From positions 166,362-230,361 of the forward strand of contig CBDCXG010000003.1 in NCBI GenBank assembly GCA_965223685.1: a stretch of 64,000 nucleotides of DNA. Direction: 5' to 3'. The stretch is from Nitrospirales bacterium. GTDB lineage: Bacteria; Nitrospirota; Nitrospiria; Nitrospirales; UBA8639. The notes under the pieces are model-generated. The model did not search any database. It was not told where the DNA came from and saw nothing but the letters and a program-made list of their open reading frames with translations. A program made the translations under genes and the position numbers. Shown here piece after piece: positions 8,867 through 64,000 of this stretch (its first letter is position 1; each line of letters opens with the position of its first letter).

Positions 8867-9070
8867 GGGAGTGTTGAATAATGAAGATATCAATGGCCAT
8901 ATTTCGCCAGGAGGCCCTTGGCGATCGTCTGTTCAAAAAAGTCCGTCCAGTCCTGTCCTGCGGCCTCCCGAAGGGAAGGCAGCAAGCCTTTTTGCGCGCG
9001 GAGCGTACTGGCACTACGTGAACACGGAAAAAGGGCGAGTACGCGGCTGGCGGCTTTTTTCAACAGACCC
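8867..9070. mobile_element. MITE-A copy 1 (204-bp variant)
   Basis: Ends GGGAGTGTTGAA / TTCAACAGACCC; flanked by direct repeat AAGGA (8862-8866, 9071-9075). Confidence 0.9.
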
Positions 9071-9082
9071 AAGGATGAAGGC

Positions 9083-10492
9083 GTGACAAACCCGTCGGCA
9101 GCTCAAGTAGCACCTGGTTGTCGCATCCGCTCCATCTCCTATTGCGTGTCCTGTGCTGTGTCAATACTTGTGCTGTCAACGCTTCCAGTTAAAGCGAACG
9201 ACAGTGGCGCGAACTTGGCTGCGCCAGCAATCGAGTCAGTCTACGACCCATATCGCGGAATGGACGAGGATGGCCGGATTCCCAAGATAGACAAGGCAGC
9301 CTTAGTTGCTCGGCCAGAACGCTGGCGGGATGTGCCGGAGGGGCGACTCAAACCCGGCGGATTTTTCGAGCGTTTCCTTATCTCAAGCTTCCTGGTTCCG
9401 CTCTTTTTCGCCAACTCCGATGTTGGGATTGGAGTAGGTGCAGCGCTCACCGATATTGATTTCCGTGCACAACGTCGCCGGGAGTTCATGGGGGCATTTA
9501 TCTCCTACACGACCGAAGGCCAGCAGAGTTATGTGTTACGCTGGCGACGCTGGGTTAAGCATCTCGAAGTCCTACCTGGAGGCGTGCTTCAGGAAGAGCG
9601 CAGCTTTTTCAGCCTAGGCGGGGGGTATCGGAAAACACTGACCCGTCGTTTCTTTGGAATTGGTCCTTCTACCCGAGAAAGTCAGGAGACCAGCTTTACC
9701 GACGCAGTCGCTTTTCTGGACCTTGGGCTTTCAACATCTCTGGAGGGGGCATTTGACGACGTTGTTCTGGATGTAGGGTTGCGAGGAGAACACCACTGGC
9801 TCAGCCGGGGCCGAGTCGGGGACGCCGGACAAACCGACAGAGAGTTTCCCAAGCTCTTCGCCTAGGCGGATCCCTATGGCCTCGGCTGGGTAGCCGCTGG
9901 AGTTCGCTGGGACACGCGCGATAGCCAGCGTAATCCCTATCGTGGGACGGTTCTAGGAGCAAGGGTCGATGCCGCACTACTCCAGAACAATTGGAATCGT
10001 GGTGCGATCTACCGACTCTTTGGTGATCAGTTAATCCCCGTCCCAGGACTGTTTCACGACGGAGGAGACAAGGACGAGGAGCATCCTCCAACTGACACCG
10101 TCGCGATTCACCTTGAGAGCCAACTCAGCTCTGGTGATTTACCTTTTTTTGCTCTCCCCACACTTGGCGGCAGTAGAGTGTTACGGGGATATATCGCGGG
10201 TCGTTGGCGGGACGATGCAGCCTGGGCCACAGCGACGGAATATCGCTTCTGGGTTTTCCCGCGGGGATTCAATGTGTGGCGGCATATTCGAGTCGAACGC
10301 CTCGGGCTGGCGATCTTTTACGAGCTCGGTGGTGTGGCATCGGACGGACTTCGCTTTTTTCAGGAACGTGTGCGTCAAAGCTACGGGATCAGTGGGCGCT
10401 TCACTTTAGAACGTGCGGCCATTTTCCGTGCCGATTTTGGGTTCTCGGAAGATGGCGTCAATTTCTCAGTGGGCTTCGGCCTACCCTTTTGA
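9083..10492 (+). pseudogene. BamA/TamA (Omp85) family outer-membrane beta-barrel gene with an in-frame TAG at 9863-9865
   Basis: ORFs 8918-9865 and 10178-10492 share one frame, which stays open after the TAG (ADPYGLGW...DTRDSQRNPYRG...LGGSRVLRGY...); C-terminal FSVGFGLPF beta-signal; signal-peptide-like N-terminus. Confidence 0.75.
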
Positions 10493-10506
10493 TCCGTGTT
10501 TCTAAT

Positions 10507-10544
10507 GGGTTTGTCGAAAAAAGCCGCCAGCGGCGTTCTCGCCA
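10507..10544. repeat. MITE-A fragment (one end only)
   Basis: GGGTTTGTCGAAAAAAGCCGCCAGCGGCGTTCTCGCCA matches the first 38 nt of full copies. Confidence 0.8.
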
Positions 10545-10748
10545 GTTTTATCCGCGGGGCCTATCCTATGTGCGTAAGCATGGGGCCCTAGAGATAATGC
10601 CGCTGGTGGGAGTTTCTGCTCCTGATAGCAATTCGGAGGGAGAAGGAATTGAGGTTCTACGGCCTGATCTACTCTTTTACACCTCACTAGATGCTCAATT
10701 CCATGGCAACTGGTGTTCATAGTGACGCCTGGCGAACCGTCTTCTGAA

Positions 10749-11114
10749 CTACGTAAGCTCGTGCTCCTTAACAATGAATGCTGAAGATTGAGCGTGATCA
10801 ATAAAGTTCCCCTCATCTTCTAGGAGCGCGGCACCTAATTTTTGCCCCTCCGGTGAACTCATGGCCTCCATGAGATCGTTTTCTGATTCAAACCACACCT
10901 CTGCAACACCATCATATTCTGGTAACATGCCCCTCGAATTTCTTAGCCCTTCGTTTATAGGGGTATCAATCGTAAGAGATTGCACATATTTCTTTGCTCG
11001 CATAGCGCCAGCATTTTTCATGAAGAAAGGGCCATGTTTGTTCGTCCAATAATCTTGAAACTGCTCACGAGTCATACTTGGATGCCGGCGTAAACACATC
11101 ACAAATTTGATCAT
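10749..11114 (-). CDS. EthD-family (dimeric alpha-beta barrel) protein
   Basis: MIKFVMCLRRHPSMTREQFQDYWTNKHGP...YDGVAEVWFES...DEGNFID pattern. Confidence 0.85.
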   Translation of the reverse strand: MIKFVMCLRRHPSMTREQFQDYWTNKHGPFFMKNAGAMRAKKYVQSLTIDTPINEGLRNSRGMLPEYDGVAEVWFESENDLMEAMSSPEGQKLGAALLEDEGNFIDHAQSSAFIVKEHELT

Positions 11115-11186
11115 TTCACCATACTCCTTTATTAAGATAGACGGCCGAACTTTCTAGGCATGTTCTCATTATTTCTAGCACAACTC

Positions 11187-11275
11187 AATGACTGCGAACT
11201 CGCCGAGAATATCTGTTCGCCAATGGGAATGAATTCTAGGGCTTCGATGGTCCCAACATGACCCAAGAGCGGACT
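11187..11275. repeat. Degenerate palindromic gene-boundary repeat, copy R1
   Basis: AATGACTGC...CTAGGGCTTCGA...ACCCAAGAGCGGACT; shares ends with copies R2-R7. Confidence 0.55.
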
Positions 11276-11360
11276 AAAGATGTTTCTGGTTTGTGATAGT
11301 CTTCCCGAATCTTCATGCCCTCAAGCATAATATGAACCTCATTATTCCGAGGATCTATCC

Positions 11361-11939
11361 GTGATAGAAATTGACCGCTTGGATCATTTAGTCCTAACTG
11401 TTGCCGATGTTGAAAAGACCGTAGCTTTTTACGAAAGGGTGTTGGGGTCTGTTGAAAAAAGCCGCCAGCGACGTTCTCGCTATTTTCCCGTGCTCACATA
11501 ATGCCAGTATGCTCCGCGCGCAAAAATAGCTGCGGCCTTGCTGAACGGACTTTTTTGAACAGATCCAAGGCCTCTGACATCTTATGTCTCAAAGACTAAA
11601 TGTGGCCATTGATATCATCATTATTCAACAGTTCGTTTAGGGATGAAGCGAGTTTCATGTGGCGAAGGCCGCATAGCCTTGTCATTTGGAAATCAGAAAA
11701 TTAACTTACATCAACTTGGCCAAGAATTTGAGCCAAAGGCTGGGAATGTAGGGGCAGGTAATGCTGATCTGTGTTTTATCTTGAAAACGCCTATAGAGGA
11801 AGCTCAAAGACATCTTGAACAATGTGGGGTCGCAATTATAGATGGGCCTGTAGCACGAACCGGAGCGGTTGGGAACATGACATCACTCTATTTTAGGGAT
11901 CCCGACCTGAATCTAATCGAAGTTTCGAAGTATGAGTGA
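11361..11939 (+). pseudogene. VOC/glyoxalase-family gene split by MITE-A
   Basis: GTG 11361 (GAGGA RBS) encodes MIEIDRLDHLVLTVADVEKTVAFYERVLG; the insertion brings a stop; the frame resumes at ATG 11643 (MKRVSCGEGRIAL...SLYFRDPDLNLIEVS). Confidence 0.9.
11445..11635. mobile_element. MITE-A copy 2, inside the VOC gene
   Basis: Collinear with the 191-bp copy at 22866; right TIR and TSD are degenerate. Confidence 0.88.
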
Positions 11940-11942
11940 GCA

Positions 11943-12183
11943 AATGACAACTTTTGGCCAAAAGCTCTAGGTTTGAAGATCGACAGGACGCAGCCCAGGC
12001 CGTGTGAAAACTTCACTGCCATCTAAGGGTAGAAATACACTTCACAAGCAGCGTGACAAGCCACTGCTTAGCCCTGGATGCGATAACGTCTATCAGTGGG
12101 TGGATTGATTGGCCTCAACTGAAGACTTGAAAGGCTTAAAGGCAATTTCAGAAGGTCGTTTTCACACCGCCCATAGCGGACGT
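11943..12183. repeat. Palindromic gene-boundary repeat R2, interrupted by MITE-B
   Basis: 11955-11997 TGGCCAAAAGCTCTAGGTTTGAAGATCGACAGGACGCAGCCCA nearly matches 14635-14677; continues as TAGCGGACGT after the insert. Confidence 0.8.
11998..12171. mobile_element. MITE-B copy 1 (174 bp, IS1182-like ends)
   Basis: TIRs GGCCGTGTGAAAAC / GTTTTCACACCGCC; CA duplicated on both sides; alignable with 37660-37837. Confidence 0.8.
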
Positions 12184-12274
12184 GCAAGAAAGAACCCCCC
12201 CTTTTCTATGTAATAATTCCCATATTGGGAGTATATACGCGTAAAATGTCTGTATAAAAAGAAGTTAAACGAAT

Positions 12275-13078
12275 ATGTATCTGGTCAAACTCCTTAAAAA
12301 AAATTACCGGGCTCTAGCAATTTCTCATGGTAAGTTGAGAATTGGAACGATAAATTACTATCGAAAAATTGAAGACAACACACGGAAAGATTCCGAAGAG
12401 GGACTCGGTAACATTATTTGGGCTGGCAACAAATTACCTGCAGATCAATTCAATAAGATTTTCACTCCCTTCGACAACGTGTCACTGAAAGAGGGATGGG
12501 CAATAGAAAATAACGGAGCAAAAATCATCGGAGCATCTCCAAATTTCAACTTGTTCATTTTTTGTTACAGTTGGATTGATGATATTTCAGAAATCTCTAA
12601 AATATCCGAGAGTAAGGCAACTGACTATTTTTTTATAACCGACCTTCATCAGTTCGTAATTAAACTTACAAACGAGGTAAAAAGGATTGGGTTCGAAATG
12701 GTCCATCAATATGAACCTGAAAGAGCCGAAGAAATAATCAAAAGGACCACAGTTGTTGATACAACATATAAAGTATTCTATTCTAACGAATCCAAATCAC
12801 GAGTTGTAACTGAAGAAAATGTTGAGAATTTCGAAGTTAAGAAATTCCTGTCCTTTGATCTTTTTCAAAAAAACAAATCATATGAGTTTGAGCAAGAAGT
12901 TAGGACAGCATGGACTTTTGTTTACCAAGATGAAAAAGGGCGTAAACAGGCCCTACAATTACCCCATCCAGACCTTGATTACATTGATGTCGAAATTGGC
13001 GAATTACCAATTTCATTGGAACCTTCAATAAATAAATATCCAATCAAAACATCTTGTCCTAAACCAAAAAACGTCTAA
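12275..13078 (+). CDS. Hypothetical protein, AT-rich orphan
   Basis: 267-aa ORF, visibly lower GC than its neighbours, no motif recognised. Confidence 0.7.
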   Translation: MYLVKLLKKNYRALAISHGKLRIGTINYYRKIEDNTRKDSEEGLGNIIWAGNKLPADQFNKIFTPFDNVSLKEGWAIENNGAKIIGASPNFNLFIFCYSWIDDISEISKISESKATDYFFITDLHQFVIKLTNEVKRIGFEMVHQYEPERAEEIIKRTTVVDTTYKVFYSNESKSRVVTEENVENFEVKKFLSFDLFQKNKSYEFEQEVRTAWTFVYQDEKGRKQALQLPHPDLDYIDVEIGELPISLEPSINKYPIKTSCPKPKNV

Positions 13079-13116
13079 TGGCTGCTAAACGTAGATCTCC
13101 GCTCTGAGCCGTCATT
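13077..13116. repeat. Palindromic gene-boundary repeat R3
   Basis: AATGGCTGCT...GAGCCGTCATT imperfect inverted repeat overlapping the upstream stop codon; CTAGGATTGA motif follows. Confidence 0.55.
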
Positions 13117-13283
13117 GCATGGTCGGCGCTAGGATTGAGGCCCAACAGCACAGGCCGGAAACCGACCACCTTGGGGTAATCAAGATGCCATTCAACCTAT
13201 AACATACAGGGGACTCTGGCAAGCAAACCCTGACTTCAGATATTGGAAAAATTGGACATATTTTATTTGTTTGCAAGGGCTAT

Positions 13284-14081
13284 ATGTCTACATTTACCTG
13301 GGATGCTCGGGACTATGAGAAGCACTCACACGCCCAAAAGAAATGGGCAAGAGAGTTAATAGCGAAGATAGACCTTGAGAAGACTGAAGCTATTCTTGAT
13401 ATAGGCTGTGGGGATGGAAAAATAACCGCAGAGCTTGCGAATTGCGTTCCCTATGGCCGCGTTGTTGGCATCGATAGCTCCAAAGCAATGGTGGAACTTG
13501 CGAAGAATGTCTATACGGTTAGTAAGTATCCAAATCTTTCGTTCGTGAATATGGATGCTGTGCATTTGGCTTTTAAAGAGCAGTTTGACGTAGTGTTTTC
13601 GAATGCCGCCTTGCATTGGATCAAAGATCATGGCCCAATGCTAAAAGGGATCTTCAGAAGTCTGAAGTCCAGAGGTCGGGTGTTGTTACAAATGGGAGGC
13701 AAAGGGAACGCAGAAGGTGTCCTTTCTGTCTTACAAGAACTCCAGAAACAACTACGATGGCGTCAGTATTTTTCAGATTTCAAGGTTCCGTATGGTTTTC
13801 ATGGACCTCCCGAATACTCAGAATGGTTGCGTGAGGTGGGCTTTACTATTGAGCGGGTAGAGCTTATACCCAAAGATATGGAACATGAGGGCAAAGCAGG
13901 TTTGGCTGCATGGGTCCGAACAACGTGGTTGCCCTTTACGGAACAAGTACCACCAGAGCAACGAGATCAGTTCATTCATGAGGTGGTCGAGAAATATATT
14001 GACCGCGCACCACTTGATGCACATGGCAAAGCACATGTTGCCATGATGAGATTAGAAGTGGAGGCTTCTAAAAAACTATAA
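13284..14081 (+). CDS. Class I SAM-dependent methyltransferase (trans-aconitate methyltransferase-like)
   Basis: ILDIGCGDG motif I, VVGIDSS, FDVVFSNAALHW. Confidence 0.9.
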   Translation: MSTFTWDARDYEKHSHAQKKWARELIAKIDLEKTEAILDIGCGDGKITAELANCVPYGRVVGIDSSKAMVELAKNVYTVSKYPNLSFVNMDAVHLAFKEQFDVVFSNAALHWIKDHGPMLKGIFRSLKSRGRVLLQMGGKGNAEGVLSVLQELQKQLRWRQYFSDFKVPYGFHGPPEYSEWLREVGFTIERVELIPKDMEHEGKAGLAAWVRTTWLPFTEQVPPEQRDQFIHEVVEKYIDRAPLDAHGKAHVAMMRLEVEASKKL

Positions 14082-14101
14082 CTTTTGCATGTAGGTGAAT
14101 C

Positions 14102-14501
14102 TATGATTACTGCAGAAAGCGACACACGTGCATATCTCACACGCTTCTCCAATGGCACGTATGATGGATTCGCTGACACCATACACGAAAAAGGTGGAGG
14201 AGAGCGTGGCTTTCGCCCACACGACTTGCTGGAGGCTGCTCTGGCATCTTGTATCAATATGACGGTACGGATGTACGCCGATAAGCATCGCATTCGTTTA
14301 GAAGGAGTGACAACGAAAGTGTCATTGAATCGAGATACGGAGGGGGAAGCTCGTTTCGAGTATCACCTCGAGTTCCTTGGAGAACTTGAGCCGGATCAGA
14401 AAGAACGGTTGTTTAAGGTGGCGGAGCAATGCCCAGTTCGCAAAACACTTTCGCGTACCATTGCGTTTGGATATCTAAGTGAAGAGAAATGTGACATGTA
14501 A
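14102..14501 (+). CDS. OsmC/Ohr family protein
   Basis: GFRPHDLLEAALASC...RMYA and AEQCPVRKTL (two conserved Cys). ORF track opens at TTG 14085; the exact start is uncertain. Confidence 0.85.
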
Positions 14502-14620
14502 TCCAGTCTGAAATGACTCAGGTCGCCCTAGCCCAAATTGGGAAATGTAAGCGAAACGGCATTTTGTTGCGTCAAAAGTATATAAAAGGCCTAAACAGAC
14601 GAAAAGGCATGGAGATATAT

Positions 14621-14688
14621 AATGTGACCGTTCCTGGCCAAAAGTCCTAGGCTTGAAGATCGACAGGACGCGGCCCACAGCAAACATT
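14621..14688. repeat. Palindromic gene-boundary repeat R4 (uninterrupted)
   Basis: AATGTGACCGTTCCTGGCCAAAAG...GCGGCCCACAGCAAACATT; near-identical core to R2. Confidence 0.8.
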
Positions 14689-14737
14689 GGGAATCGAGTC
14701 TCATCCAAAAATTTTACGATGTCTTAAAGGAATGACT

Positions 14738-15283
14738 GTGAAAACAAGCGAACTAGTCTGGCAGGAGTACCATACGAAATTGGCTAGGTTCATACGAAGC
14801 CGGGTGACAGAGGAAGCAGTGGATGATCTGTTACAGGATGTGTTCATGAGGATTCACTCGCGCCTTGACTCCCTGAACGACGATGCGAAGCTGGAAAGTT
14901 GGTTGTATCAGATTACTCGCAATGCCATCACAGACTATTACCGTTCTCAGCGAAAGACAGAAGATCTTCACGAATGGATAGAACAACCTCCACCCGAAGA
15001 GGCCGACACGATTAGGAAGGAGCTGTCAGCCTGCCTGGAACCGATGATTCAGGAGTTGCCTGACAAATATCGCCACGCCATCCAACTGTCTGAACTTGAA
15101 AATAAGACGCAACAAGAAGTGGCTGAACAGGAAGGCATTTCATTATCCGGGGCAAAATCCCGCGTCCAACGAGGGCGAGCCATATTAAAAGACATTCTGG
15201 AAGACTGCTGTCAGTTTGAGCTGAACCAGCAGAATCAGATTCTTTCGTACGAGAAAAAGAAAGAGAAGGGGAAATATTGCTAG
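14738..15283 (+). CDS. sigZ: ECF sigma factor, SigZ family, with C-terminal Cys residues
   Basis: DDLLQDVF, WLYQITRNAITDYYR, region 4 SLSGAKSRVQRGR; ends EDCCQF...GKYC; GTG 14738 fits AAGGA spacing. Confidence 0.85.
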   Translation: MKTSELVWQEYHTKLARFIRSRVTEEAVDDLLQDVFMRIHSRLDSLNDDAKLESWLYQITRNAITDYYRSQRKTEDLHEWIEQPPPEEADTIRKELSACLEPMIQELPDKYRHAIQLSELENKTQQEVAEQEGISLSGAKSRVQRGRAILKDILEDCCQFELNQQNQILSYEKKKEKGKYC

Positions 15284-15294
15284 GTCGTCTTTTT

Positions 15295-15322
15295 TGCGTC
15301 TTTTTCCTCCCGTCTCCGTCTA
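15295..15322 (+). promoter_or_regulatory. Candidate ECF-type promoter for arsM
   Basis: TGCGTC followed by CGTC motifs about 40-60 nt upstream of the arsM start; CGTC is a common ECF -10 core. Assignment is inference. Confidence 0.35.
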
Positions 15323-15362
15323 TAGGGGTAACATGACTTTATTCACCCAACGGGAGGCTCAA

Positions 15363-16157
15363 ATGAACACTCAAGTAAAAAATGACAACATTCGTCAGAT
15401 CGTGCGTGAACGCTATGGCACCATTGCCGTATCTGACAATAACTCGTGTGCCACGAATTCATGTTGCCCGGGTGGCGATGCCAAGGCCACCTCAATGAAT
15501 CTGGGCTATTCGAGTGCTGATGTTAATCAAGTACCCGAGGGAGCCAATATGGGTTTGGGGTGCGGCAATCCCCGGGCCATCGCTTCCTTGAAAGTCGGGG
15601 AGACGGTCTTAGATTTAGGGAGTGGCGGGGGCTTTGATTGTTTTCTTGCCGTGAAGGAAGTGGGGGAAGACGGGACGGTAATTGGTGTGGATATGACCCC
15701 TGACATGGTGAGTAAAGCCAGAGCGAATGCCGACAAGGTAGGCTATACCAATGTGGAGTTTCGCCTTGGGGAAATAGAACATTTGCCTGTTGCCAATGGT
15801 GTGGTTGATGTCATTATTTCCAACTGCGTGATCAATCTGTCACCTGATAAAGCTAAGGTGTTTCAAGAAGCTTATCGGGTGTTGAAACCAGGCGGACGGT
15901 TGGCCATTTCAGATATCGTCGCGAGTGCTGAGCTACCGGAACCACAGAAAAACGATATGGCATTGTTCACGGGGTGTATGGCAGGCGCCTCATTCATCAC
16001 AGAGATTGAATCCATGCTGAAAGACGCTGGGTTTGAAGCAATCGACATCAAGCCGAAAAACAACAGTCAGGAATTTATCCGAAAATGGGCGCCAGATACC
16101 AAGATTGAGGACTATGTCGTATCCGCCTATATCGAGGCCATTAAGCCTGCCACTTAA
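15363..16157 (+). CDS. arsM: Arsenite S-adenosylmethionine methyltransferase
   Basis: SCC, LGCGNP, VLDLGSGGGFD, ISNCVINL, FTGCMAG; GGAGG RBS before ATG 15363. Confidence 0.9.
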   Translation: MNTQVKNDNIRQIVRERYGTIAVSDNNSCATNSCCPGGDAKATSMNLGYSSADVNQVPEGANMGLGCGNPRAIASLKVGETVLDLGSGGGFDCFLAVKEVGEDGTVIGVDMTPDMVSKARANADKVGYTNVEFRLGEIEHLPVANGVVDVIISNCVINLSPDKAKVFQEAYRVLKPGGRLAISDIVASAELPEPQKNDMALFTGCMAGASFITEIESMLKDAGFEAIDIKPKNNSQEFIRKWAPDTKIEDYVVSAYIEAIKPAT

Positions 16158-16233
16158 CAAGCATGTCTATTCGAGCAGAGCAAAGTGTCACGGCTTTGCT
16201 CTGCAGCTTGGAGCGGCCGTTTCCGAGAGGAGC

Positions 16234-16271
16234 GATGACCATTCTGGCCGAAAGTGACCAACGCGGACATT
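16234..16271. repeat. Palindromic gene-boundary repeat R5 (short form)
   Basis: GATGACCATTCTGGCCGAAAGTGACCAACGCGGACATT shares both ends with R4. Confidence 0.65.
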
Positions 16272-16329
16272 CAAAGATAAGACTCTTATCATGCCTAACC
16301 CTTATTAAGGCCACACCAGGAACGTTGAT

Positions 16330-16971
16330 ATGTTTCTCGTCAAATTGATACCTCCAAGGCTGCTCTCCAGACAAGCTAGAAAACCATCTGGTTGGTTTGG
16401 ACGTGTGGTGATGTCCCGAATTTTCAATAAGGGAAATGCTGAATTAAATCATTTCATCAAAGACCTCTTGGAACTGCAGGAACATGATACTGTTTTGGAG
16501 ATCGGATTTGGGCCAGGTTTATTATTAAGTCAAATGGCTCAAACCACCACGAAAGGCTTTGTGGAAGGCATTGATTTCTCAGAAGCCATGGTGGCTCAAG
16601 CCCAAAAAATTAACAAACACTATATTGCTCAGAAGAGAGTAAAAATTCAGAAGGGTCATTGTGACAACTTGCCATATGGCCCGGAGTCATTCGATAAAGT
16701 CTGCACGTCAAATACGATTTACTTTTGGGAAGACCCGAAGGCCATCTTCAATGAAATCTTTCGGGTGCTCAAACCAGAAGGTAAACTGGTGATCGGATTT
16801 AGAGATGCCGATCAAATGAAGACCCTCCCTCTCAGTAAGGAAGTATTCCATTTTTACACGATGAAGGACGTAAAAGGCTTCTTGACCCAAGCAGGATTTT
16901 TTCCTGTCCGGATTGAAAAAATGGAAGGCCAACCGTTGGTTTCTTATTGCGCCGTGGGTACAAAAGCCTAA
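16330..16971 (+). CDS. Class I SAM-dependent methyltransferase
   Basis: VLEIGFGPG motif I, GIDFSEAM, FDKVCTSNTIYFW. Confidence 0.9.
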   Translation: MFLVKLIPPRLLSRQARKPSGWFGRVVMSRIFNKGNAELNHFIKDLLELQEHDTVLEIGFGPGLLLSQMAQTTTKGFVEGIDFSEAMVAQAQKINKHYIAQKRVKIQKGHCDNLPYGPESFDKVCTSNTIYFWEDPKAIFNEIFRVLKPEGKLVIGFRDADQMKTLPLSKEVFHFYTMKDVKGFLTQAGFFPVRIEKMEGQPLVSYCAVGTKA

Positions 16972-16999
16972 AAAAATCACAACGCCGGCTCTCGACCCA

Positions 17000-17063
17000 G
17001 GCTGTGTGAAAACTCCTCAGCCAACTGATGGTAGAGGTCGACTTCAAAGGCAGCATGATCCGT
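17000..17063. mobile_element. MITE-B copy 2 (left part only, cut by IS630), inserted in repeat R6 (16981-16999)
   Basis: ...CTCGACCCA|GGCTGTGTGAAAAC...; internal sequence alignable to the other MITE-B copies up to the IS end. Confidence 0.75.
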
Positions 17064-17065
17064 TA

Positions 17066-17961
17066 TAGTCATTCCAAATAAGTTCCTGATGCTGTATACT
17101 GCTGGGCACTATGGCCTATAGCATCGATTTACGACAACGAGTGGTAAAGTTTGTTGCTGCTGGGGGCAGCAAGGCCGAAGCCGTTCGGCGTTTTCACGTC
17201 AGTATTTGGTGCGTCCACGATTGGTGTGGGCGAGCTGACTTAACCCCCAAGTATCCTCCAACCCGCCGACGCAAGTTAAATCGCGCGGCCTTGCGACGAC
17301 ATGTGACCCAGCACCCTGAGGCGACGCTCCAGGAGCGGGCTAGCCATTTCGGAGTCCGAATCAATGCAATCTGGTATGCACTCCGCCAGGAGCACATCAC
17401 TCGTAAAAAAAACTCTTCGGTACGCTGAACGGGATTCCACCCAGCGGGCCGCCTATCTTGCGCAACGGCGCCAGCTCCATCTGACCCAAGCCACCCCCCC
17501 CAGTGGTCTATCTCGATGAGAGCGGTTTTGAGCGCACAGCCTACCGCTCTCACGGATGGGCTTGCCGCGGCCAACGAGTGGCAGGGGAACGGAGTGGCCA
17601 GTCTCGTCCCCGCACCAGCTTGATCGCTGGGAAATGGGGCCAGCGCCTGCTAGCTCCCGTCCTCTTTGCAGGCAGCACGAATGCTGAGTGGTTCAATATC
17701 GGGCTCGAAGAGCATCTGTTTAAAGAGTTGGCTCCCCACTCGATCCTCATCATGGATAATGCCGCGTTTCATAAAACGGCGAAGCCCCGTGAGCTGATCG
17801 AACAAGCGGGGCACACGCTGCTGTTTCTGCCTCCGTACTCCCCGGATTTCAATCCGATTGAACAAGACTTTGCGACGATCAAGAAACGCTGGCAATATGC
17901 TTCGTCAGAGAAGTCGTTTGAAGAGATTCTCCGATTGTATGGAACTTAATTGGAATGACTA
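17066..17961 (+). mobile_element. IS630-family insertion sequence
   Basis: TIRs TAGTCATTCCAAATAAGTTCC / GGAACTTAATTGGAATGACTA, TA on both flanks; HTH ORF plus DDE ORF. Confidence 0.93.
17111..17949 (+). CDS. IS630 transposase, two ORFs joined by a probable -1 frameshift
   Basis: ORF A (MAYSIDLRQRVV, HTH) ends just after an A run at about 17404-17412; the -1 frame is open from there to VYLDESGF...LIMDNAAFH...LPPYSPDFNPIE. Confidence 0.9.
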
Positions 17962-17981
17962 TAATTGGAGAGCGACAGGCG

Positions 17982-18689
17982 CTAGTTTATCAGAGCCCCG
18001 CCTGTACTATAGATAATGGTTGCGCCAAGGATAATGGTCATGGTGCCTATACATCCTTGGAGACCGTTGTGGAACCACGTCAAGGAAGGAGAAGAATATC
18101 GAAACGGAAGGGCAATCACTAAAGAGAGTGCAGCCATGCCGGCTATGGACCCTAACCCAAATAGGACAACATAAAGGAGGCTTGTGAGAGGAGACAGTTG
18201 TGTTTGTAGCGTCAGAACAATGAGGGCAGCGGAGCCTGCCATCCCGTGCATGAGACCGACAAACAAAGCACGATAGGGAAAACCTTGCGGGTGATTGTGA
18301 TCATGCTTGGACAGCGTGTGCAGAGGTTCTCCTTCGTGGGAATGTGCATGAAAGTGTGGGGCTTTATCAGCATGTTGATGGACATGAAAGTGGATACGTT
18401 CTTTGATAAGTTTTCGAAACACGTCAATTCCTAACCCCACCAACATACAGCCAACCAACAATTCCAGCCACTGCGCCAACCGTTCAGGAATGATCGCCCC
18501 CCCGAGCAAGACGAGGGAACTGAACAACAAAAGGGTAAGCGTGTGTCCGACGCCCCATACCATACCCTGCCGGACCGAATGACTGACTGATCGACTGTTG
18601 GTCGCAAGCGTGGCCACCGCAGCCACGTGGTCGGCCTCAAGGGCATGCCGCATCCCAACTAAGAATCCGATCCCAAGAAGCATTAACAT
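17982..18689 (-). CDS. High-affinity nickel transporter, UreH/NiCoT-like
   Basis: GMRHALEADHVAAV signature, His-rich loop, GLMHGMAGS, multiple TM helices; last gene of the hyp operon. Confidence 0.85.
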   Translation of the reverse strand: MLMLLGIGFLVGMRHALEADHVAAVATLATNSRSVSHSVRQGMVWGVGHTLTLLLFSSLVLLGGAIIPERLAQWLELLVGCMLVGLGIDVFRKLIKERIHFHVHQHADKAPHFHAHSHEGEPLHTLSKHDHNHPQGFPYRALFVGLMHGMAGSAALIVLTLQTQLSPLTSLLYVVLFGLGSIAGMAALSLVIALPFRYSSPSLTWFHNGLQGCIGTMTIILGATIIYSTGGALIN

Positions 18690-19528
18690 CGGGCGAGGTC
18701 CTTATCGGGATTAGGCGTCATTTGCGATCGAATCCAGTCGTACCATTGTGGCATCCCTTCTCCTGTTGTCGCGGAAACCTGGAAGACCTGTATTTGTGGG
18801 TTCACCATTTTAGCACTATCCAAGCACTTCTGGACATTAAATGAAAGGTGCGGGAGCAAGTCGATTTTATTCAAGATCATGACCTGCGCCGATTGAAACA
18901 TGTGGGGATATTTCAATGGCTTGTCTTCCCCCTCTGTTGTGGAAAGAATGGCAACCTTGGCCTGTTCACCCAGATCAAAGAGCGCTGGACACACAAGATT
19001 TCCCACGTTTTCAATGAACACAAGTGAATGGGGCGGTGGGGCCAGCTCGTCTAATCCCCGGGCGAGCATATCCGCTTCAAGATGACAGCCGGCCCCGGTG
19101 TTGATCTGAACCACTCGACATCCGGTTTGCTGGATGCGTTCTGCATCATGCAGCGTCTCCTGATCTCCTTCAATCACTGAAATGGTTATCGCATCGCGCA
19201 AATGGCGAATGGTGTGTTCGAGAAGTGTCGTTTTGCCTGATCCAGGGGAACTGACTAAATTGAGCGCCAGAATATCTTTAGCCTGAAACCATCCTCGGTT
19301 CCGTTCCGCTAATCGATCATTCTTACTGAGAATGGCTTGTTCAAGGAGCACGGTGTGTTCATGGTCATGAGTGTGATGGTCGTCATGATGAGCATGAACG
19401 TGATCATGTTCGTCATGTGAGTCATGTGCGTGGGTATGCGGGTGACTAGTGACGGGATTCGTCTTCCCGGTCTCGAGATTGGTTACGCGAGGAGTCATCG
19501 TGTCAGAACATCCGCAGGTCGTACACAT
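18683..19528 (-). CDS. hypB: Hydrogenase nickel incorporation GTPase HypB
   Basis: CTTCGC N-terminal site, His-rich stretch, SSPGSGKT, CH, ENVGNLVCP, NKID. Confidence 0.97.
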   Translation of the reverse strand: MCTTCGCSDTMTPRVTNLETGKTNPVTSHPHTHAHDSHDEHDHVHAHHDDHHTHDHEHTVLLEQAILSKNDRLAERNRGWFQAKDILALNLVSSPGSGKTTLLEHTIRHLRDAITISVIEGDQETLHDAERIQQTGCRVVQINTGAGCHLEADMLARGLDELAPPPHSLVFIENVGNLVCPALFDLGEQAKVAILSTTEGEDKPLKYPHMFQSAQVMILNKIDLLPHLSFNVQKCLDSAKMVNPQIQVFQVSATTGEGMPQWYDWIRSQMTPNPDKDLARC

Positions 19529-19857
19529 TAGGCTTTCACCATTTGCTTAATGTTAAGCTCAGAACCCGTACATCGCGAAATATCATTCGAGCCGCATGGA
19601 CAGGGATCAAACATCTGTGTGAGAGTAAATTGGGCACCGCAGGCATGACATTCCCCAGTGCCAGGAGTTTCAATGATTTCTAGCGTCGCTCCCTCTGCGA
19701 CGGTTCCTTTGGTGACCAGATCAAAACAAAACCGAAGGGCATCTGGCAGGACGGCACTGAACTTTCCAATTTCCAAGGTCACCTGTGTGACCTTGGCGCC
19801 ATGAGCTTTTTCAGACACGATTGAGACAATGTTACGTGTTAAACTTAGCTCGTGCAT
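19528..19857 (-). CDS. hypA: Hydrogenase nickel metallochaperone HypA
   Basis: MHE N-terminus, CHAC...CPCG zinc site. Confidence 0.95.
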   Translation of the reverse strand: MHELSLTRNIVSIVSEKAHGAKVTQVTLEIGKFSAVLPDALRFCFDLVTKGTVAEGATLEIIETPGTGECHACGAQFTLTQMFDPCPCGSNDISRCTGSELNIKQMVKA

Positions 19858-19911
19858 CGATCCATCTCTTGCTGAAAATGACGGTTCTTAGGGGTGTCCT
19901 TGATTTCTTGC

Positions 19912-21003: not shown

Positions 21004-21019
21004 ATGACAGATTTTTTCG

Positions 21020-22165: not shown

Positions 22166-22854
22166 GGCGTGTCCTTTGGTCGCGCGAGCGCACCACGTTT
22201 ATCGGCAAGCAGCGTATGCACGAGATCCCACATAATGTGATAGATGAGCACGTGACATTCCTGCACTCGGTGAATGCTATCTGTTTCCACGATCAAACAA
22301 TGATCAATCGCCGAGGAGGTCGCCATACGTCCGCCTGCCCCTCCGGTCAAGGCGATGGTCGTTAACCCCATCTCTTTGGCTTTTTCGAAGGCCCGTAGAA
22401 GATTCTCTGAGTTACCACTGGTTGAGGCCCCGATGAGGCCGTCCTCGGGTTTTCCTTGTGCGATGAGTTGACGAACAAAGATATGGTCGAACCCAACATC
22501 ATTTCCTACCGCCGTCATCATGGCTTGATCTGATGCCAAATTCATCGCGGGAAGAGACGGTCTTCCCGCTGTGACAGGATGAAGAAATTCAACAGCCACA
22601 TGAGCGGCATCGCAGCTGGATCCACCGTTGCCCATCGTCAAAAGCCGACCTCTATTCTGAAAAATGGAAGCGATGGCTTGGGCGACATCAACGACCCCTT
22701 GTGCAGATTTCGCAAAAAAGCCCTGCATCACATGCACACTATCTTGGGATTTGCGAAGCGCGGATTCCAATAATTCATGGTCGAGACGCGCGTGATCCTG
22801 TCGGTCTGACTGCAGAAACGGGTACAGAGATGACAAGGTATCTTGTGTGGACAT
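22162..22854 (-). CDS. SIS-domain protein (GmhA/phosphoheptose isomerase-like) inside the hyp operon
   Basis: GNGGSSCDAAH, AVGND, STSGNSEN, HRVQECH; overlaps the hypD start by 4 nt. Confidence 0.88.
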   Translation of the reverse strand: MSTQDTLSSLYPFLQSDRQDHARLDHELLESALRKSQDSVHVMQGFFAKSAQGVVDVAQAIASIFQNRGRLLTMGNGGSSCDAAHVAVEFLHPVTAGRPSLPAMNLASDQAMMTAVGNDVGFDHIFVRQLIAQGKPEDGLIGASTSGNSENLLRAFEKAKEMGLTTIALTGGAGGRMATSSAIDHCLIVETDSIHRVQECHVLIYHIMWDLVHTLLADKRGALARPKDTP

Positions 22855-22865
22855 GTTTCAATACC

Positions 22866-23056
22866 GGGTCTGTTGAAAAAAGCCGTCAGCGGCGTTCTCG
22901 CCATTTTTCCGTGCTCACGTAGTGCCAGTACGCTCCGCGCGCAAAAAGGGCTACGGCCTTGCTGAACGGACTTTTTTGAACAGACCCGAGGCCTCTGACA
23001 TGTTACGTCGCAGAGGCGAAATCTGGCTGTTGATATCATCAATATTCAACAGTCTC
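22866..23056. mobile_element. MITE-A copy 3 (191 bp)
   Basis: Ends GGGTCTGTTGAA / TTCAACAGTCTC; TSD ATACC (22861-22865, 23057-23061). Confidence 0.93.
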
Positions 23057-23061
23057 ATACC

Positions 23062-23343: not shown

Positions 23344-25754
23344 AGCGTCTCTTTCTTGGCGTACATAGAGCGAGCTGCGGCAATAACGGCTTGGCCCAAG
23401 GCTAGCCCTCCATCGTTCATCGGCACCTGACGGTGAGAAAGGACCGTGAACCCTTCTTTGGTGAGTTTCTGATGCACGAGCTCAAATAATATTTGGTTTT
23501 GAAAAACTCCTCCAGATAGTGCCACGGTATGATAGGCTCGTTGGCCGTCAGAATTTTGGGTACAGGTCTTGACCATCGAACAGATGACATTGGCCAGTCC
23601 TTTATGAAACCGTGCGGCCATGACGGGTCGTGGTGTGTCTAGCAGTAAATCACCTAGAAGTGCCTCCCACATGGCGAGTGGTTCAATGTAAGGGAGTTGA
23701 GAACCCCGAAGACGTGGAATAGAGAACGGATAAGCCAAGACATCTTGTTCCCGTTCGAGCGTGCAACGATCGACCTTAGCCTCCAATTCCATCGCGGCTT
23801 GCCCTTCATACAGAATGCGATCCGAGCAGATTCCTATCGCAGCCGCAACGGCATCAAACAGGCGGCCGCATGAACTGGCAAGTGGACTATTCACGTGTTT
23901 GCTCAGCATTTGATCCAGCATCGCTCGGGGTTTTTGGTCCAAGTAGTGGTACAAGGGCAGGTTATGATAGTTCATGGCAAACCGGGCCCAACCCATTTCT
24001 GCCACTATATGAGCGTAGGTGTTGCGCCAGGGTTCTTTAATGGCCTGACTGCCTCCGAGCATGGCGACCGGTTTGAAAGTCCCCAGCCGAGTAAAGCGAT
24101 CGTAATCACCAGCGAGAAATTCCCCTCCCCAGATAGTCTGATCTTCTCCATACCCCAAACCATCGAGGATCACGCCAAGAACCGGCCCCGTCGTGATAGG
24201 AATGTTATTGTCAGCTAAGCATGCCGCCAAATGCGCATGGTGATGTTGAACTTCGTGCAATGGCAATTGGGCTTGTTCCGCTCGTTGCCGACCCAACTTG
24301 CTGGACACATATTCCGGATGACGATCAATCGCAATAACTTTGGGGGTTTGTCCGAATAATGGCTGATAGTGCTCCAACGCTCGCTGATAGTCTGTGTACG
24401 TCAAGGCATCTTCTAAATCGCCGATGTGGTGGGACAGAAGGGCTTCTCCGCGTTGCACGAAACAAAACGTATTCTTGAGTTCTCCACCCATCGCCAACAC
24501 CCGCGTTGCCTGTTCAAAACCATTTGGGAGCGAAAGTGGTGTCGGTGCGTAGCCACGACTTCGACGGAAGATTCGTGGAATGTTTAACATCACCTTGACG
24601 ACTGAATCATCCACGCGTTGAGAAACGTCTCGATCGTGAAACACAAAATACTCAGCAATATCACTCAAATGTTCCTTGGCTAACCGGTTCTCAATCCATT
24701 GAGGTTCTCCAGCTCGATTGCCGCTCGTCAAGACTATCGGGACTGTCATTCGCTTGAGGATCAAGTGATGCAAGGGAGAATTCGGGAGCATGACCCCATA
24801 GGTCGAAAATCCCTCGGCGACACGTGGGACTAATGAATGTCCATCTTGACGAGCAAGCAGGACGATCGGGGCGGCTGGACCTTGGAGCAACGCGGCTTCC
24901 AGATCACTCACCTTGCAATACTTCCGCACCACATCCAAATCCCTGGCCATGAGCGCAAACGGCTTTCCTTCTCGTTGCTTGAGTGCTCGTAGTCTGTTGA
25001 CAGATTCTTCCTGCGTGGCGTCACACGCTAATTGGAAGCCCCCTAATCCTTTGATCGCCACGATGCGACCGCGTTTCAACAATGTGCAGACGGCATCCAC
25101 GTCGTCCAACATACTCAAGGAATCGACAGCGATCGGTTTGCCATCAGCCCGTTCAAGCCAGGCATGAGGACCACAGACATGACAGGCAATGGGTTCGGCA
25201 TGGAATCGTCGATCGTGCGGGTCGCTATATTCCTGAGCACACCCATCGCACATGCTGAAGGTACGCATGGTCGTGTTCTGCCGATCGTACGGTATGCGTT
25301 GTTGAATCGTGAGCCGTGGGCCGCAGTGCGTACAATTTGTAAAGGGATACCGGAAGCGTCGAGCAAACGGATCGAAAATTTCTTCGAGGCATTCCGAACA
25401 TGTGCTGGCATCGGGAACGATTCCTGTTTCCGTTCCCGTGGGCTTTGATTCCGCAATGTGAAACTGATGTTCGGAAATGTCTTCCGGAGAAATGGATTCC
25501 CAAACTATGTTTTGGATTTTGGCTAAGGGCGGAGGGTTGTTGGTTAACTCTTTCATGAAATTCGTTAAGTCTGTTTTTTCGCCTGCGGCCAAGATTTCAA
25601 CCCCTTCGCCGTTGTTGAGAACCTGTCCTCTCAATTGATGACGTTGTGCCAGAACCCAAACCATGGGGCGAAACCCTACGCCTTGGACCAACCCTTGAAT
25701 GTGGATTTTCCAGGCGACTTGTTGAGTTGACGGTTCAGTGACAGGAGCATTCAT
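23334..25754 (-). CDS. hypF: Carbamoyltransferase HypF
   Basis: Acylphosphatase GLVQGVGFRP, two zinc fingers, KGLGG, HHHAH, GDGGL-like NDGGLALGQ. Confidence 0.97.
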   Translation of the reverse strand: MNAPVTEPSTQQVAWKIHIQGLVQGVGFRPMVWVLAQRHQLRGQVLNNGEGVEILAAGEKTDLTNFMKELTNNPPPLAKIQNIVWESISPEDISEHQFHIAESKPTGTETGIVPDASTCSECLEEIFDPFARRFRYPFTNCTHCGPRLTIQQRIPYDRQNTTMRTFSMCDGCAQEYSDPHDRRFHAEPIACHVCGPHAWLERADGKPIAVDSLSMLDDVDAVCTLLKRGRIVAIKGLGGFQLACDATQEESVNRLRALKQREGKPFALMARDLDVVRKYCKVSDLEAALLQGPAAPIVLLARQDGHSLVPRVAEGFSTYGVMLPNSPLHHLILKRMTVPIVLTSGNRAGEPQWIENRLAKEHLSDIAEYFVFHDRDVSQRVDDSVVKVMLNIPRIFRRSRGYAPTPLSLPNGFEQATRVLAMGGELKNTFCFVQRGEALLSHHIGDLEDALTYTDYQRALEHYQPLFGQTPKVIAIDRHPEYVSSKLGRQRAEQAQLPLHEVQHHHAHLAACLADNNIPITTGPVLGVILDGLGYGEDQTIWGGEFLAGDYDRFTRLGTFKPVAMLGGSQAIKEPWRNTYAHIVAEMGWARFAMNYHNLPLYHYLDQKPRAMLDQMLSKHVNSPLASSCGRLFDAVAAAIGICSDRILYEGQAAMELEAKVDRCTLEREQDVLAYPFSIPRLRGSQLPYIEPLAMWEALLGDLLLDTPRPVMAARFHKGLANVICSMVKTCTQNSDGQRAYHTVALSGGVFQNQILFELVHQKLTKEGFTVLSHRQVPMNDGGLALGQAVIAAARSMYAKKETLCA

Positions 25755-26968: not shown

Positions 26969-26974
26969 GAACTT

Positions 26975-27895: not shown

Positions 27896-27900
27896 GGGTG

Positions 27901-29863: not shown

Positions 29864-30367
29864 TGCCAGACTATGAACTCACCACTTTCGCCGAAGACGA
29901 CCTAAGAGGTATTGCCCGTTATACAATTGATACCTGGGGACTTAAACAAGCCAAGCGTTATGAAGCGTCACTTGCTGCTCGATTTCACAAAATTGCGCAA
30001 GGGGATGTCACACCAAGAACCTTTCTCTCCCATAGACCAGTCTTGCTCGTCACTCATTGTGAGCATCACTACATCTTCTATACTGGGAGTGTTGAATAAT
30101 GTGGATATCAAATGGCCACAATGCCCGGGAACACTGAGGATGTCAAAAGCCTCGGGCCTGTTCAAAAAAGTCCGTCCAGCAAGGCCACAGCCATTTTGAC
30201 GCGCGCAGCGTACTGGCATTACGTGAGCACGGGAAAATGGCGAGAACGCCGCTGGCGGCTTTTTTCAACAGGCCCATACTATCCGTGACACTCAGTGCCC
30301 CTTAATCATCGCGGTCTTTTATGAGCGTATGGATTTAATGCGACGTCTCAAAGACCGTCTGCCATAA
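29863..30367 (+). pseudogene. parE: ParE/RelE-family toxin split by MITE-A
   Basis: MPDYELTTFAEDDLRGIARYTIDTWG...CEHHYIFYT; removing the insert and one TSD restores IRDTQCPLIIAVFYERMDLMRRLKDRLP* (102 aa). Confidence 0.93.
30085..30275. mobile_element. MITE-A copy 4 (191 bp), inside parE
   Basis: Ends GGGAGTGTTGAA / TTCAACAGGCCC; TSD ATACT (30080-30084, 30276-30280). Confidence 0.95.
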
Positions 30368-31461: not shown

Positions 31462-31726
31462 GGGTCTGTTGAAAAAAGCCGCCAGCGGCGTTCTCTAAAC
31501 CAGTAAGAAGTGAAAAGTGAGAAGTAAGGAGCACGAGGAAAACCTCAGGACCCTTCGGATGAGTGATAACGATCATGGTGAGCTTGTCGAACCATCCTTC
31601 GACAGGCTCAGGATGATAGGTTGAACAGCTCAGAACATGTTTTTTTTGAACAGACCCAACGCTATTGATCTCCAAGGGCCTCCTGGCCAAATATGGCCCT
31701 TGATATCTTCATTATTCAACACTCTG
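31462..31726. mobile_element. MITE-A copy 5, composite (265 bp) carrying repeat family C internally
   Basis: Ends GGGTCTGTTGAA / TTCAACACTCTG; TSD ATGTT (31457-31461, 31727-31731); central part replaced. Confidence 0.85.
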
Positions 31727-41906: not shown

Positions 41907-42097
41907 GCGGCTGTTGAAAAAAGCCACCAGCGGCGTTCTCACCATTTTTCCGTGCTCACGTAGTACCAGTACGCTCCACGCGTAAAAATGGCTGCGGCCT
42001 TGCTGGATGAACTTTTTTGAACTGCCCCGAAGCTTTTGGTATCCAACGCAATCATGAGCAAAGTTGCCTCTGGTATTTTGTTTTATTCAACACTCCC
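41907..42097. mobile_element. MITE-A copy 6 (191 bp)
   Basis: Ends GCGGCTGTTGAA / TTCAACACTCCC; TSD TTAAT (41902-41906, 42098-42102). Confidence 0.92.
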
Positions 42098-62203: not shown

Positions 62204-62306
62204 TTCTCAAAAAGACCAAAAACTGTTTCCCTGTTCTTGAAGAATATCGGTTGTCCGGCTAGAATCATCTAGACGAAAAAAATATTTCAATACAGACGAT
62301 ATCCAT

Positions 62307-62382
62307 TCCTCGGTAGCTCAGTTGGTAGAGCGTTCGGCTGTTAACCGAATGGTCGCAGGTTCGAGTCCTGCCCGGGGAGCCA
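62307..62382 (+). tRNA. tRNA-Asn (GTT)
   Basis: 76 nt; acceptor TCCTCGG/CCGGGGA, D arm AGCTCAGTTGGTAGAGC, anticodon arm TTCGG-CT-GTT-AA-CCGAA, GTTCGAGTC T loop, encoded CCA. Confidence 0.97.
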
Positions 62383-62390
62383 ATTTGAGA

Positions 62391-62427
62391 AAAGCCCTCT
62401 GTACATCATGTACAGAGGGCTTTTTTT
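62391..62427 (+). terminator. Intrinsic terminator after tRNA-Asn
   Basis: AAAGCCCTCTGTACA-TCA-TGTACAGAGGGCTTTTTTT. Confidence 0.85.
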
Positions 62428-62458
62428 GTCTCAGATGCTTTTGGAGTATTTCTTTTAA

Positions 62459-62649
62459 GGGCGTGTTGAATAATGAAGACATCGATAGCCATATTTCTCC
62501 ATGAAGCAATTGGTGATCAATGGCTTCGGGTCCGTTCAAAACAGTTCGTTCAGCAAGGCCGCAGCCCTTTTTGCGCGCGGAGCGTACTGGCACTACGTGA
62601 GTACGGAAAAAGGGCGAGAACGCCGCTGGCGGATTTTTTCAACGGACCC
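62459..62649. mobile_element. MITE-A copy 7 (191 bp)
   Basis: Ends GGGCGTGTTGAA / TTCAACGGACCC; TSD TTTAA (62454-62458, 62650-62654). Confidence 0.93.
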
Positions 62650-62876
62650 TTTAACTTGCGATTCCCCCTGGTCGTGCGATGGGGATCTGCATTCCTTGGC
62701 CATTCAGCGAAAAGAATGGAAGGCAAGAGTTGTCTTTTTTGACAGATTTTTGCATGATGTGGCACAACGCTAAAATTGAAGCTACGAATTTCTGCTTTGA
62801 GGAGATATCAAGTAGAGTACAGAAATTTTTTGTTGCCTCGTGTTCGTTTAAATATCCAATTTTTGTGGTATTTGTC

Positions 62877-63542
62877 ATGAATGTACGCCATCATCCGTTT
62901 AAAAATGTGCCGTTATTTTCTGATCTGACTGATAAGGAGTTGTCTGTCTTGGCTGCGTCAGGCAAGAGTCGAAAATTTCCTGCCAAGAATGTGGTCTTCC
63001 AAGAAGGAGAGCCTGGTGACGTGCTGCTGGTGATCTTGTCGGGGAAGGTCAAAGTCTTGCTTACAGGGAAAGACGGACAAGAATTTATTTTGACCATGCT
63101 GGGTCCAGAAAATTTTTTCGGGGAAATGGCCATATTAGAAGCAGCTCCACGTTCAGCCACCGTTATGACCGTCGAGCCCAGTGAATTTTTGCTCCTCGAG
63201 CAAAAAGACTTAATTGGGCTTATCAAAAAACATCCAGGAATCGCCGTAAAAATTCTGAAACATCTCTCCCAACGTCTACGCAAAACCAATGAACAAATCC
63301 GAAGTCTGGTCATGTTTGATATTTATGGTCGAGTGGGACGTTGTCTCCTGAATTTGGCAGAAACACAAGGTGGACGGGCGAATGGCCAGTTTCTGGTCCC
63401 GAATCGCCCCTCGTTTCAAGAGTTGGCGAAGATGGTGGGCTGTTCACGAGAAACATTAAGCCGCGCCATGAAAGCCCTCAAAGACAATGGATGCCTAACC
63501 GTTACGCGCAATACAATCTACATCAATAAGGTCTGGGAATAA
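62877..63542 (+). CDS. Crp/Fnr-family transcriptional regulator
   Basis: cNMP domain FFGEMAILEAAPRSATV; HTH ELAKMVGCSRETLSR. Confidence 0.93.
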   Translation: MNVRHHPFKNVPLFSDLTDKELSVLAASGKSRKFPAKNVVFQEGEPGDVLLVILSGKVKVLLTGKDGQEFILTMLGPENFFGEMAILEAAPRSATVMTVEPSEFLLLEQKDLIGLIKKHPGIAVKILKHLSQRLRKTNEQIRSLVMFDIYGRVGRCLLNLAETQGGRANGQFLVPNRPSFQELAKMVGCSRETLSRAMKALKDNGCLTVTRNTIYINKVWE

Positions 63543-63811
63543 CGCCATGTGGTATCAGAGCAGGAATACCACAAAAGGTGATGTAGGTCACTGACAAGAC
63601 CAATGCCTTGTAGGTACAGTCAAGGCTAAACTACCCCACGTATTTTTTCTTTTATACAAGGTCTAGGTTCTTCTCTGCGTGGGGATGCTCATAGTTGCAG
63701 GACTCAACGGATCTTCTCCGTTCTCTCACTTTTTCACTTTCTGAACACGGGAACTGTACTTATATTAGGTATGAAATATTTCTCGGCCAGAAGGCCAGAC
63801 ATTGTCTGAAT

Positions 63812-64000
63812 GGGCGTGTTGAATGATGAAGACATCGATAGCCATATTTCTCCATGAAGCAATTGGTGATCAATGGCTTCGGGTCCGTTCAAAACAGTTC
63901 GTTCAGCAAGGCCGCAGCCCTTTTTGCGCACGGAGCGTACTGGCAATACGTGAGTACGGAACAAGGGCGAGAACGCCGCTGGCGGCTTTTTTCAACGGAC
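63812..64000. mobile_element. MITE-A copy 8, runs off the window edge
   Basis: Nearly identical to copy 7; left end GGGCGTGTTGAA. Confidence 0.9.

Follow-up and report, generated by a model that had tools for sequence, protein, structure and literature searches.

A ~191-bp miniature inverted-repeat element in a Nitrospirales genome and an IS5-family insertion sequence with the same ends in its congeners

Small non-autonomous repeats of several origins are known in bacteria. The miniature transposable element with inverted repeats (MITE) of Porphyromonas gingivalis is said to be an example of one derived from an insertion sequence (IS) of the IS5 family, a family that includes IS903, whose inverted repeat is GGCTTTGTTGAATAAATC. 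Miniature elements derived from Tn3 (TIMEs) reportedly produce target-site duplications (TSDs) of 5 bp, have ends with runs of G and are mobilised in trans, and the MITEs of the Correia, RUP and ERIC type are hairpin-forming intergenic repeats of 100–200 bp that can alter the expression of neighbouring genes. A literature search found no MITE described for Nitrospirales or Nitrospira. Here we describe a repeat of ~191 bp from a three-contig Nitrospirales assembly of 4.09 Mb, starting from a stretch of 64,000 nucleotides (C3:166362-230361, hereafter the window). Its position in Nitrospirales is borne out by a HypF relative of 95% amino-acid identity. The repeat is very probably a non-coding, non-autonomous MITE of the DDE type, which shares its ends and its TSD with an IS5-family IS of 1224–1229 bp found in congeners.

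Copies, target-site duplications and empty sites

By repeat finding and reading of each copy, eight copies of the element and one fragment of 43 nt at 10507 were found in the window (Table 1), that is, all of the nine copies listed in the first-pass annotation, which had been made from the letters of the window alone. The ends of the element are GGGnnTGTTGAA(A/T)AA, and GGGNNTGTTGAA, with at most one mismatch, was matched 22 times in the window compared to 6.0 ± 2.3 times in shuffled sequences. Seven of the eight copies are flanked by an exact 5-bp TSD; the six duplications reported earlier (AAGGA, ATACC, ATACT, ATGTT, TTAAT and TTTAA) were borne out on reading the copies, and TGAAT was added for the copy at 63812. 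The terminal inverted repeats (TIRs) described earlier are also real, but their shared length is 15–16 nt instead of 12 nt, and so is the inner unit of ~122 nt bounded by inverted repeats. Open reading frames (ORFs) inside the copies do not exceed ~60 aa, are confined to the repeat and include no transposase ORF.

The genome-wide count of copies and TSDs proposed in the first-pass annotation was then carried out. A profile search with the 122-nt core gave 95 non-overlapping core copies, with a mean spacing of one per 43 kb. A recognisable right end, with GGGnnTGTTGAA(A/T)AA at both termini, was present in 77 of the 95 copies, and the modal lengths of the element were 191 bp, seen in 28 copies, and 190 bp, seen in 17. 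The TSD was exact (5/5) in 42 of these 77 elements and matched at 4/5 positions in 15, whereas only 0–2 matches per offset remained when the right flank was displaced (−3 to +15 nt). The duplicated 5-mers are richer in A+T than the genome (75% versus 53%) and show a weak nTnAn preference. Nearly all of the retained copies lie between genes: of 69 elements, 2 had both flanking points (taken 40 nt out) within ORFs of 150 aa or more, compared to 72% of random point pairs. Since the window proved to be the densest 64-kb stretch of the genome (9 core matches versus a mean of 1.5), the earlier extrapolation from its density to a large genome-wide burst was overstated.

Empty and filled sites were compared with two relatives, at three sites with the closest one, G058 (95% nucleotide identity, syntenic with window 17974–37644), and at two sites with G060 (79%, covering 18022–37605). 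Where this genome has ATACC-MITE-ATACC at 22866, G058 has the junction TTTCAATACCTTATGA, and G060 also lacks the element; where it has ATACT-MITE-ATACT at 30085, G058 has the junction CTTCTATACTATCCGT. The element at 31462 is missing in G060. Reciprocally, a subfamily-B MITE flanked by TTTCT on both sides in G058 (locus L018) lies opposite a single TTTCT at 23351–23355 here. Empty sites already carrying both 5-mers, an arrangement that would contradict transposase-mediated insertion, were looked for and the opposite was found, namely a single 5-mer (ATACC, ATACT) at the orthologous empty sites of G058, in accordance with the mode of insertion claimed at first. None of the four insertions in this collinear stretch of 20 kb is common to this genome and its relatives; therefore, both lineages gained copies after their split.

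Two genes of the window are disrupted by copies. The copy at 30085 cuts parE, for which G058 retains an intact 102-aa ParE (PF05016) adjoining ParD (PF09386), and the parE ORF here stops four codons into the MITE. The copy at 11445 splits a gene of the VOC/glyoxalase family, whose two halves, when rejoined, match PF00903 over its full length (1–121/121).

An insertion sequence with the same ends in congeners

No transposase with matching ends had been noticed in the window, and this holds for the whole assembly; nor did this genome contain any paired MITE-type ends 300–8000 bp apart with a TSD, even when two mismatches were allowed. The search was productive in congeners, where the genus was searched for DUF772 (PF05598), the loci obtained were scanned for terminal repeats, and relatives of the resulting locus (L245 of G017) were fetched. 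L245 is an element of 1226 bp with the ends GGGACTGTTGAATAA and an ORF of 317 aa. Copies of this IS (1224–1229 bp, TIR GGGACTGTTGAATAA) were found in six congeners (G058, G041, G053, G002, G034 and G017), and six of the eight copies with flanks have an exact 5-bp TSD (Table 1). The left end of the IS agrees with the terminus of the MITE B arm at 16/16 positions and with that of the A arm at 15/16, and its right end, as the reverse complement, agrees with the core-left end of the MITE at 28/35 positions, including GGCGTTCTCG at the same offset. For the sequence beyond the TIR, 8 of 1000 shuffles attained the local similarity score of IS and MITE.

The earlier guess of an IS5/IS1182-like partner is borne out by this IS, whose 317-aa transposase contains the Pfam domains DUF772 (PF05598, 6e-20) and DDE_Tnp_1 (PF01609, 7e-14). 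With the NCBIfam models it scored 134.6 bits for NF033581 (IS5_4; cut-off 140) and 151 bits for NF033551 (IS1182; cut-off 270), and its close homologues are named 'IS5 family transposase' by JGI. On plasmids, the nearest relative is an unnamed transposase of 62% identity from a Candidatus Bandiella plasmid (element ends GGGAGTGTTGCAAGA / GGGAGCGTTGAAAGA), the named IS5-family proteins being at most 28% identical; a plasmid search at the DNA level gave no match.

The MITE is present in all 18 congeners searched (18/18) and weaker in other families of the order. Of 50 congeners, 7, including G058, have the partner transposase in intact form and ~10 more have stop-ridden remnants, and no trace of it was found in this genome or in G007, which has the most MITE candidates by a first-look count. 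Among the 80 listed of 115 stretches matching a 31-nt core word, the records are only of Nitrospirales or Nitrospira, apart from a few that are probably mis-binned. The ~190-bp build recurs in copies from Nitrospira sp. DJ and from an uncultured Nitrospira, with the TSDs ATACG and ATGAT.

The ends and TSDs of the element are observed features, and so are the occupied and unoccupied sites and the existence of an IS that shares both ends and TSD; from these, the following course may be drawn. The 317-aa transposase would bind the 15–16-bp ends of the MITE in trans, as judged from the shared terminal sequence; the target, AT-rich and with a weak nTnAn preference, would be cut with a 5-nt stagger, the MITE integrated, and the gaps repaired into a 5-bp duplication. 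The MITE is probably a derivative of the IS that lost the interior and gained the palindromic core; the similarity to the right end of the IS extends over 35 nt of the MITE's core-left end, and that to the left end over 16 nt of its arm. Copies have been inserted after the split from the 95%-identical relative, and since the transposase is gone from the assembly, those of this genome are now probably stranded unless the IS returns.

Several points weigh against this explanation. The link between IS and MITE consists of shared ends and TSD length, and the similarity of their interiors is confined to ~35 nt at one end. The transposase is undetectable both here and in G007, the MITE-richest congener by the first-look count; therefore, recent movement needs a lost or transient source. 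The assembly is 98.8% complete, so that an IS copy could lie in the unassembled part. As for the family, the IS5_4 score of 134.6 is just below the cut-off of 140, and a 5-bp TSD is unusual for the named IS5 subgroups, which have 2–4, 8 or 9 bp in ISfinder. A literature search found no table of TSD lengths for the IS5 subgroups.

Build of the element and copies in the window

The left 122 nt of the element fold into a long, though imperfect, hairpin with GGGnnTGTTGAAAAAAG ... CTTTTTTGAACAnnCCC as its boundaries. This core bears its own inner copy of the element end and is followed by an arm of 69 nt terminating in TTATTCAACA(C/G)TCCC. At least two types of arm, A and B, occur on one common core. 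The two ends of the element agree over 15–17 nt; elements of subfamily B have the same core with an unrelated arm, the ends GGGAA...TTCCC, and exact 5-bp TSDs (TTTCA, TGAAT, AAAAT, AGTCA and ATTCA). Coreless mini-elements, in which a B arm is joined to an A arm, also exist, and the parts of the element are therefore modular. The youngest subfamily (GGGTCCGTTGAA / TTCAACACGCCC ends) comprises 12 copies with a mean pairwise identity of 95.9%, nearest neighbours reaching up to 99%, and 10 of the 12 have exact TSDs; two of its members are those found at the right-hand margin of the window.

Table 1. MITE copies and an empty target in the window (window coordinates), and IS copies in congeners (genome handles)
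Feature	Position or genome	Strand	TSD and remarks
MITE copy, 204 bp, subfamily A	8867..9070	-	AAGGA at 8862-8866 and 9071-9075
Truncated MITE copy, 43 nt, core-left end only	10507..10549	+	nhmmer positions 1-43
MITE copy within VOC/glyoxalase-family gene	11445..11635	+	decayed, 3/5
MITE copy, 191 bp	22866..23056	+	ATACC; site empty in G058 (single ATACC) and G060
Empty target TTTCT, 6 codons from hypF stop	23351..23355	.	G058 counterpart filled
MITE copy, 191 bp, within parE toxin gene after ~codon 74	30085..30275	-	ATACT
MITE copy, 265 bp, core interior swapped for ~150 nt of CCTTCGACAGGCTCAGG-type short repeat	31462..31726	+	ATGTT; absent in G060
MITE copy, 191 bp, end 14 nt upstream of ORF start at 42111	41907..42097	+	TTAAT
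MITE copy, 191 bp, youngest subfamily (GGGTCCGTTGAA / TTCAACACGCCC ends)	62459..62649	-	TTTAA
MITE copy, 191 bp, youngest subfamily, 97% identical to 62459 copy	63812..64000	-	TGAAT
IS copy L367	G058		AGAGA
IS copies L368, L369	G041		TCAAT, CTCAA
IS copies L370, L371	G053		ATGAT, TTTTT; one further G053 copy 4/5
IS copy L375	G002		TATAG
IS copy	G034		no TSD

The copy at 62459 is flanked by a tRNA and its terminator on one side and by a Crp-family gene on the other. That at 63812 extends 2 nt past the window, to 64002, and its right flank was taken from the genome sequence. The subfamily-B MITE of G058 lies within the six final codons of hypF, resulting in an altered C-terminus of HypF. At this locus, collinearity with G058 and G060 is limited to the hydrogenase/hyp segment 17974–37644; the flanks, 1–17973 and 37645–64000, were not found within the 80 kb fetched around the locus in G058 and G060. 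Possibly the window, dense in MITEs as it is, represents a variable region.

Some other repeats were observed along with the MITE. Short units of the types CCTGAGCTCTGTCGAAGG / CCTTCGACAGGCTCAGG occur at ~30400–30560 and 31480–31640 of the window, are missing at the same site in G058 and constitute the foreign interior of the MITE at 31462; a 17-mer of these units has ~15 matches genome-wide. A 24-nt version, CCCTTCGACAAGCTCAGGGCAGGA, is found at a single fixed insertion point in several MITE cores, both here and in other genomes. The motif CCCAGGCTGTGTGAAAAC characterises another repeat family, located at 11986–12056, 16988–17058 and 37648–37718. The same motif is the terminal repeat of a ~1.7-kb IS1182-like IS with ORFs of 483–539 aa (C3:485769-487465 and C3:1585169-1586865 in this genome; also in G004, G015 and G052), and the repeats of the window resemble solo ends of this IS or MITEs belonging to it. 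The window further contains a direct repeat (3334–3867 versus 5040–5573, offset 1706 bp, 77–91% identity) between two adjacent kinase genes. On a Nitrospirales chromosome (OY820905.2; L254, 4901–5876), two MITE copies 570 bp apart both adjoin the 5-mer ATACA, which could reflect a small duplication or a preferred target; this 976-bp arrangement, considered as a 'composite', turned out to be two separate MITE insertions.

Hairpin, other explanations and known elements

The DNA fold of the 122-nt core has an energy of −47.5 kcal/mol (z = −6.6). When 56 cores were aligned and evaluated against a hand-drawn full-length hairpin, 90.5% of the alignment cells were paired, and 21 of the 45 pairs had changed on both sides. 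Double changes were found in 125 cells, compared to 37 ± 4 in shuffles (0/500 reached 125) and 12–28 with the partner column slid; as the copies are related by descent, such cell counts are inflated, and it is safer to go by how many pairs covary (21 versus 14.1 ± 2.0). RNAalifold independently recovered the terminal stem, in which positions 4–6 covary with 118–120 as UA/AU/CG and CG/AU. The compensatory changes keep the hairpin, either because the fold is selected or because the two arms correct each other.

Possibly, though this seems doubtful to us, the folded form itself is under selection, either because efficient mobilisation by the IS5-type transposase requires the single-stranded hairpin or because the host has taken over the core as a two-way terminator or RNA-processing site; such selection would take in the covariation of the 'free' outer-end positions 4–6 with the inner end copy. 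In the latter case, a repeatedly lost transposase may have carried the core through the Nitrospirales genus. It is unlikely that the repeat is mainly a structural module selected by the host (such as a two-way terminator or RNA-processing hairpin), which spread and is kept for that function, with transposition as its delivery only. The strength of the fold and its maintenance by compensatory changes would suit such a module, as would the A-run and T-run flanking the stem, the terminator-like sites that a simple consensus scan flagged inside copies, and the position of copies almost only between genes. However, purifying selection against insertions in genes would leave the same intergenic pattern, arm-to-arm correction within the hairpin could give the same covariation without any function for the host, no Rfam family matches the MITE, and copies have disrupted parE and the VOC gene.

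Very improbable, in our estimation, is mobilisation of the MITE by another IS5-family element of the genus, a 1.7-kb IS with a 545-aa transposase and the ends GGGCTTGCTGAAAAAAGC. These ends match the core-left end of the MITE at 15/18 positions, and no other related transposase has left a trace in the present genome, where this one is represented by a decayed, frameshifted copy at C2:938.7-940.4 kb (L055, L091). Nevertheless, its copies in many phyla have 6-bp TANNTA duplications, not 5 bp, and position 8 of its ends is always C (GCTGA or CCTGA), never the T of the MITE, whereas the 1.2-kb IS matches the ends as well as the TSD length exactly. This type (IS5_1, 545 aa; PF13586 / NF033578) was rejected as the partner after its 6-bp TANNTA and C at position 8 had been seen in the genus, in the order and at 79 loci from many phyla. 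One of its copies, L104, has inverted instead of direct flanks (TATCTA / TAGATA).

Other candidates for the partner were rejected by their ends. The multi-copy ISs of this genome (families of 1335, 1400, 720, 1560 and 1697 bp) have other ends and TSDs of 8–9 bp; no PF01609 locus across the genus had matching ends; an IS427-like IS beside a MITE fragment (L064) has different ends; and the IS1182-like class of 475–539 aa ends in CCCAGGCTGTGTGAAAAC. That the repeat is no transposon, being a REP/BIME-like or recombination-spread palindrome, or that it is a TIME derived from Tn3, is scarcely credible, for in spite of its palindromic body, its GGG start and the 5-bp TSD of the Tn3 family, spread by recombination is incompatible with the exact TSDs and the clean empty sites, the ends of 15–16 nt lack the 38-bp GGGG...TAAG repeat of Tn3, and a non-Tn3 IS with identical ends exists.

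The MITE and the IS thus make a documented pair for Nitrospirales, an order with nitrite-oxidising bacteria, which can serve annotators as a model, both to mask the ~95 small spurious ORFs of a genome and to mark genes that are really disrupted, here those of the ParE toxin and the VOC protein. Because insertions differ between genomes of 95% identity, they can be used as strain markers in metagenomes. The MITE occurs throughout the genus, in contrast to the patchy and decaying IS, and this makes the pair well suited to studies of how a non-autonomous element survives its partner.

Among known elements, the IS5-derived MITEs of bacteria are the most similar: like them, the Nitrospirales MITE is small and non-coding, shares TIRs with a DDE IS, has a TSD of fixed length, occurs in many, mostly intergenic copies and can fold into a hairpin. 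It differs from them in its own sequence, in its uncultured Nitrospirales host, in the 5-bp TSD, in the build of a 122-nt hairpin core with interchangeable 69-nt arms, and in that the partner IS is absent from the genome. With IS903, there is likeness in the terminal motif TGTTGAATAA, common to the MITE arms and the 1.2-kb IS, and in the single-ORF DDE transposase of ~300 aa within an element of ~1.1–1.2 kb; the TSD of IS903, by contrast, is 9 bp instead of 5 bp, and the transposase here has the N-terminal domain DUF772. The Tn3-derived TIMEs resemble it in the 5-bp TSD and in ends starting with runs of G, but the MITE has no 38-bp repeat of the Tn3 type, and its partner would be an IS5-family IS and not a Tn3 transposon. 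MITEs of the Correia, RUP and ERIC type differ in their TSDs (TA for Correia) and in the families of their partners, and REP/BIME-type repeats have neither a TSD nor terminal repeats in common with an IS, whereas the MITE has TSDs and an IS partner. What goes beyond the textbook is the 5-bp TSD for an IS5-type enzyme, the modular build of core plus arm and the covariation of the hairpin; the MITE is new in sequence, but it is an ordinary, well-behaved mobile element of a known type.

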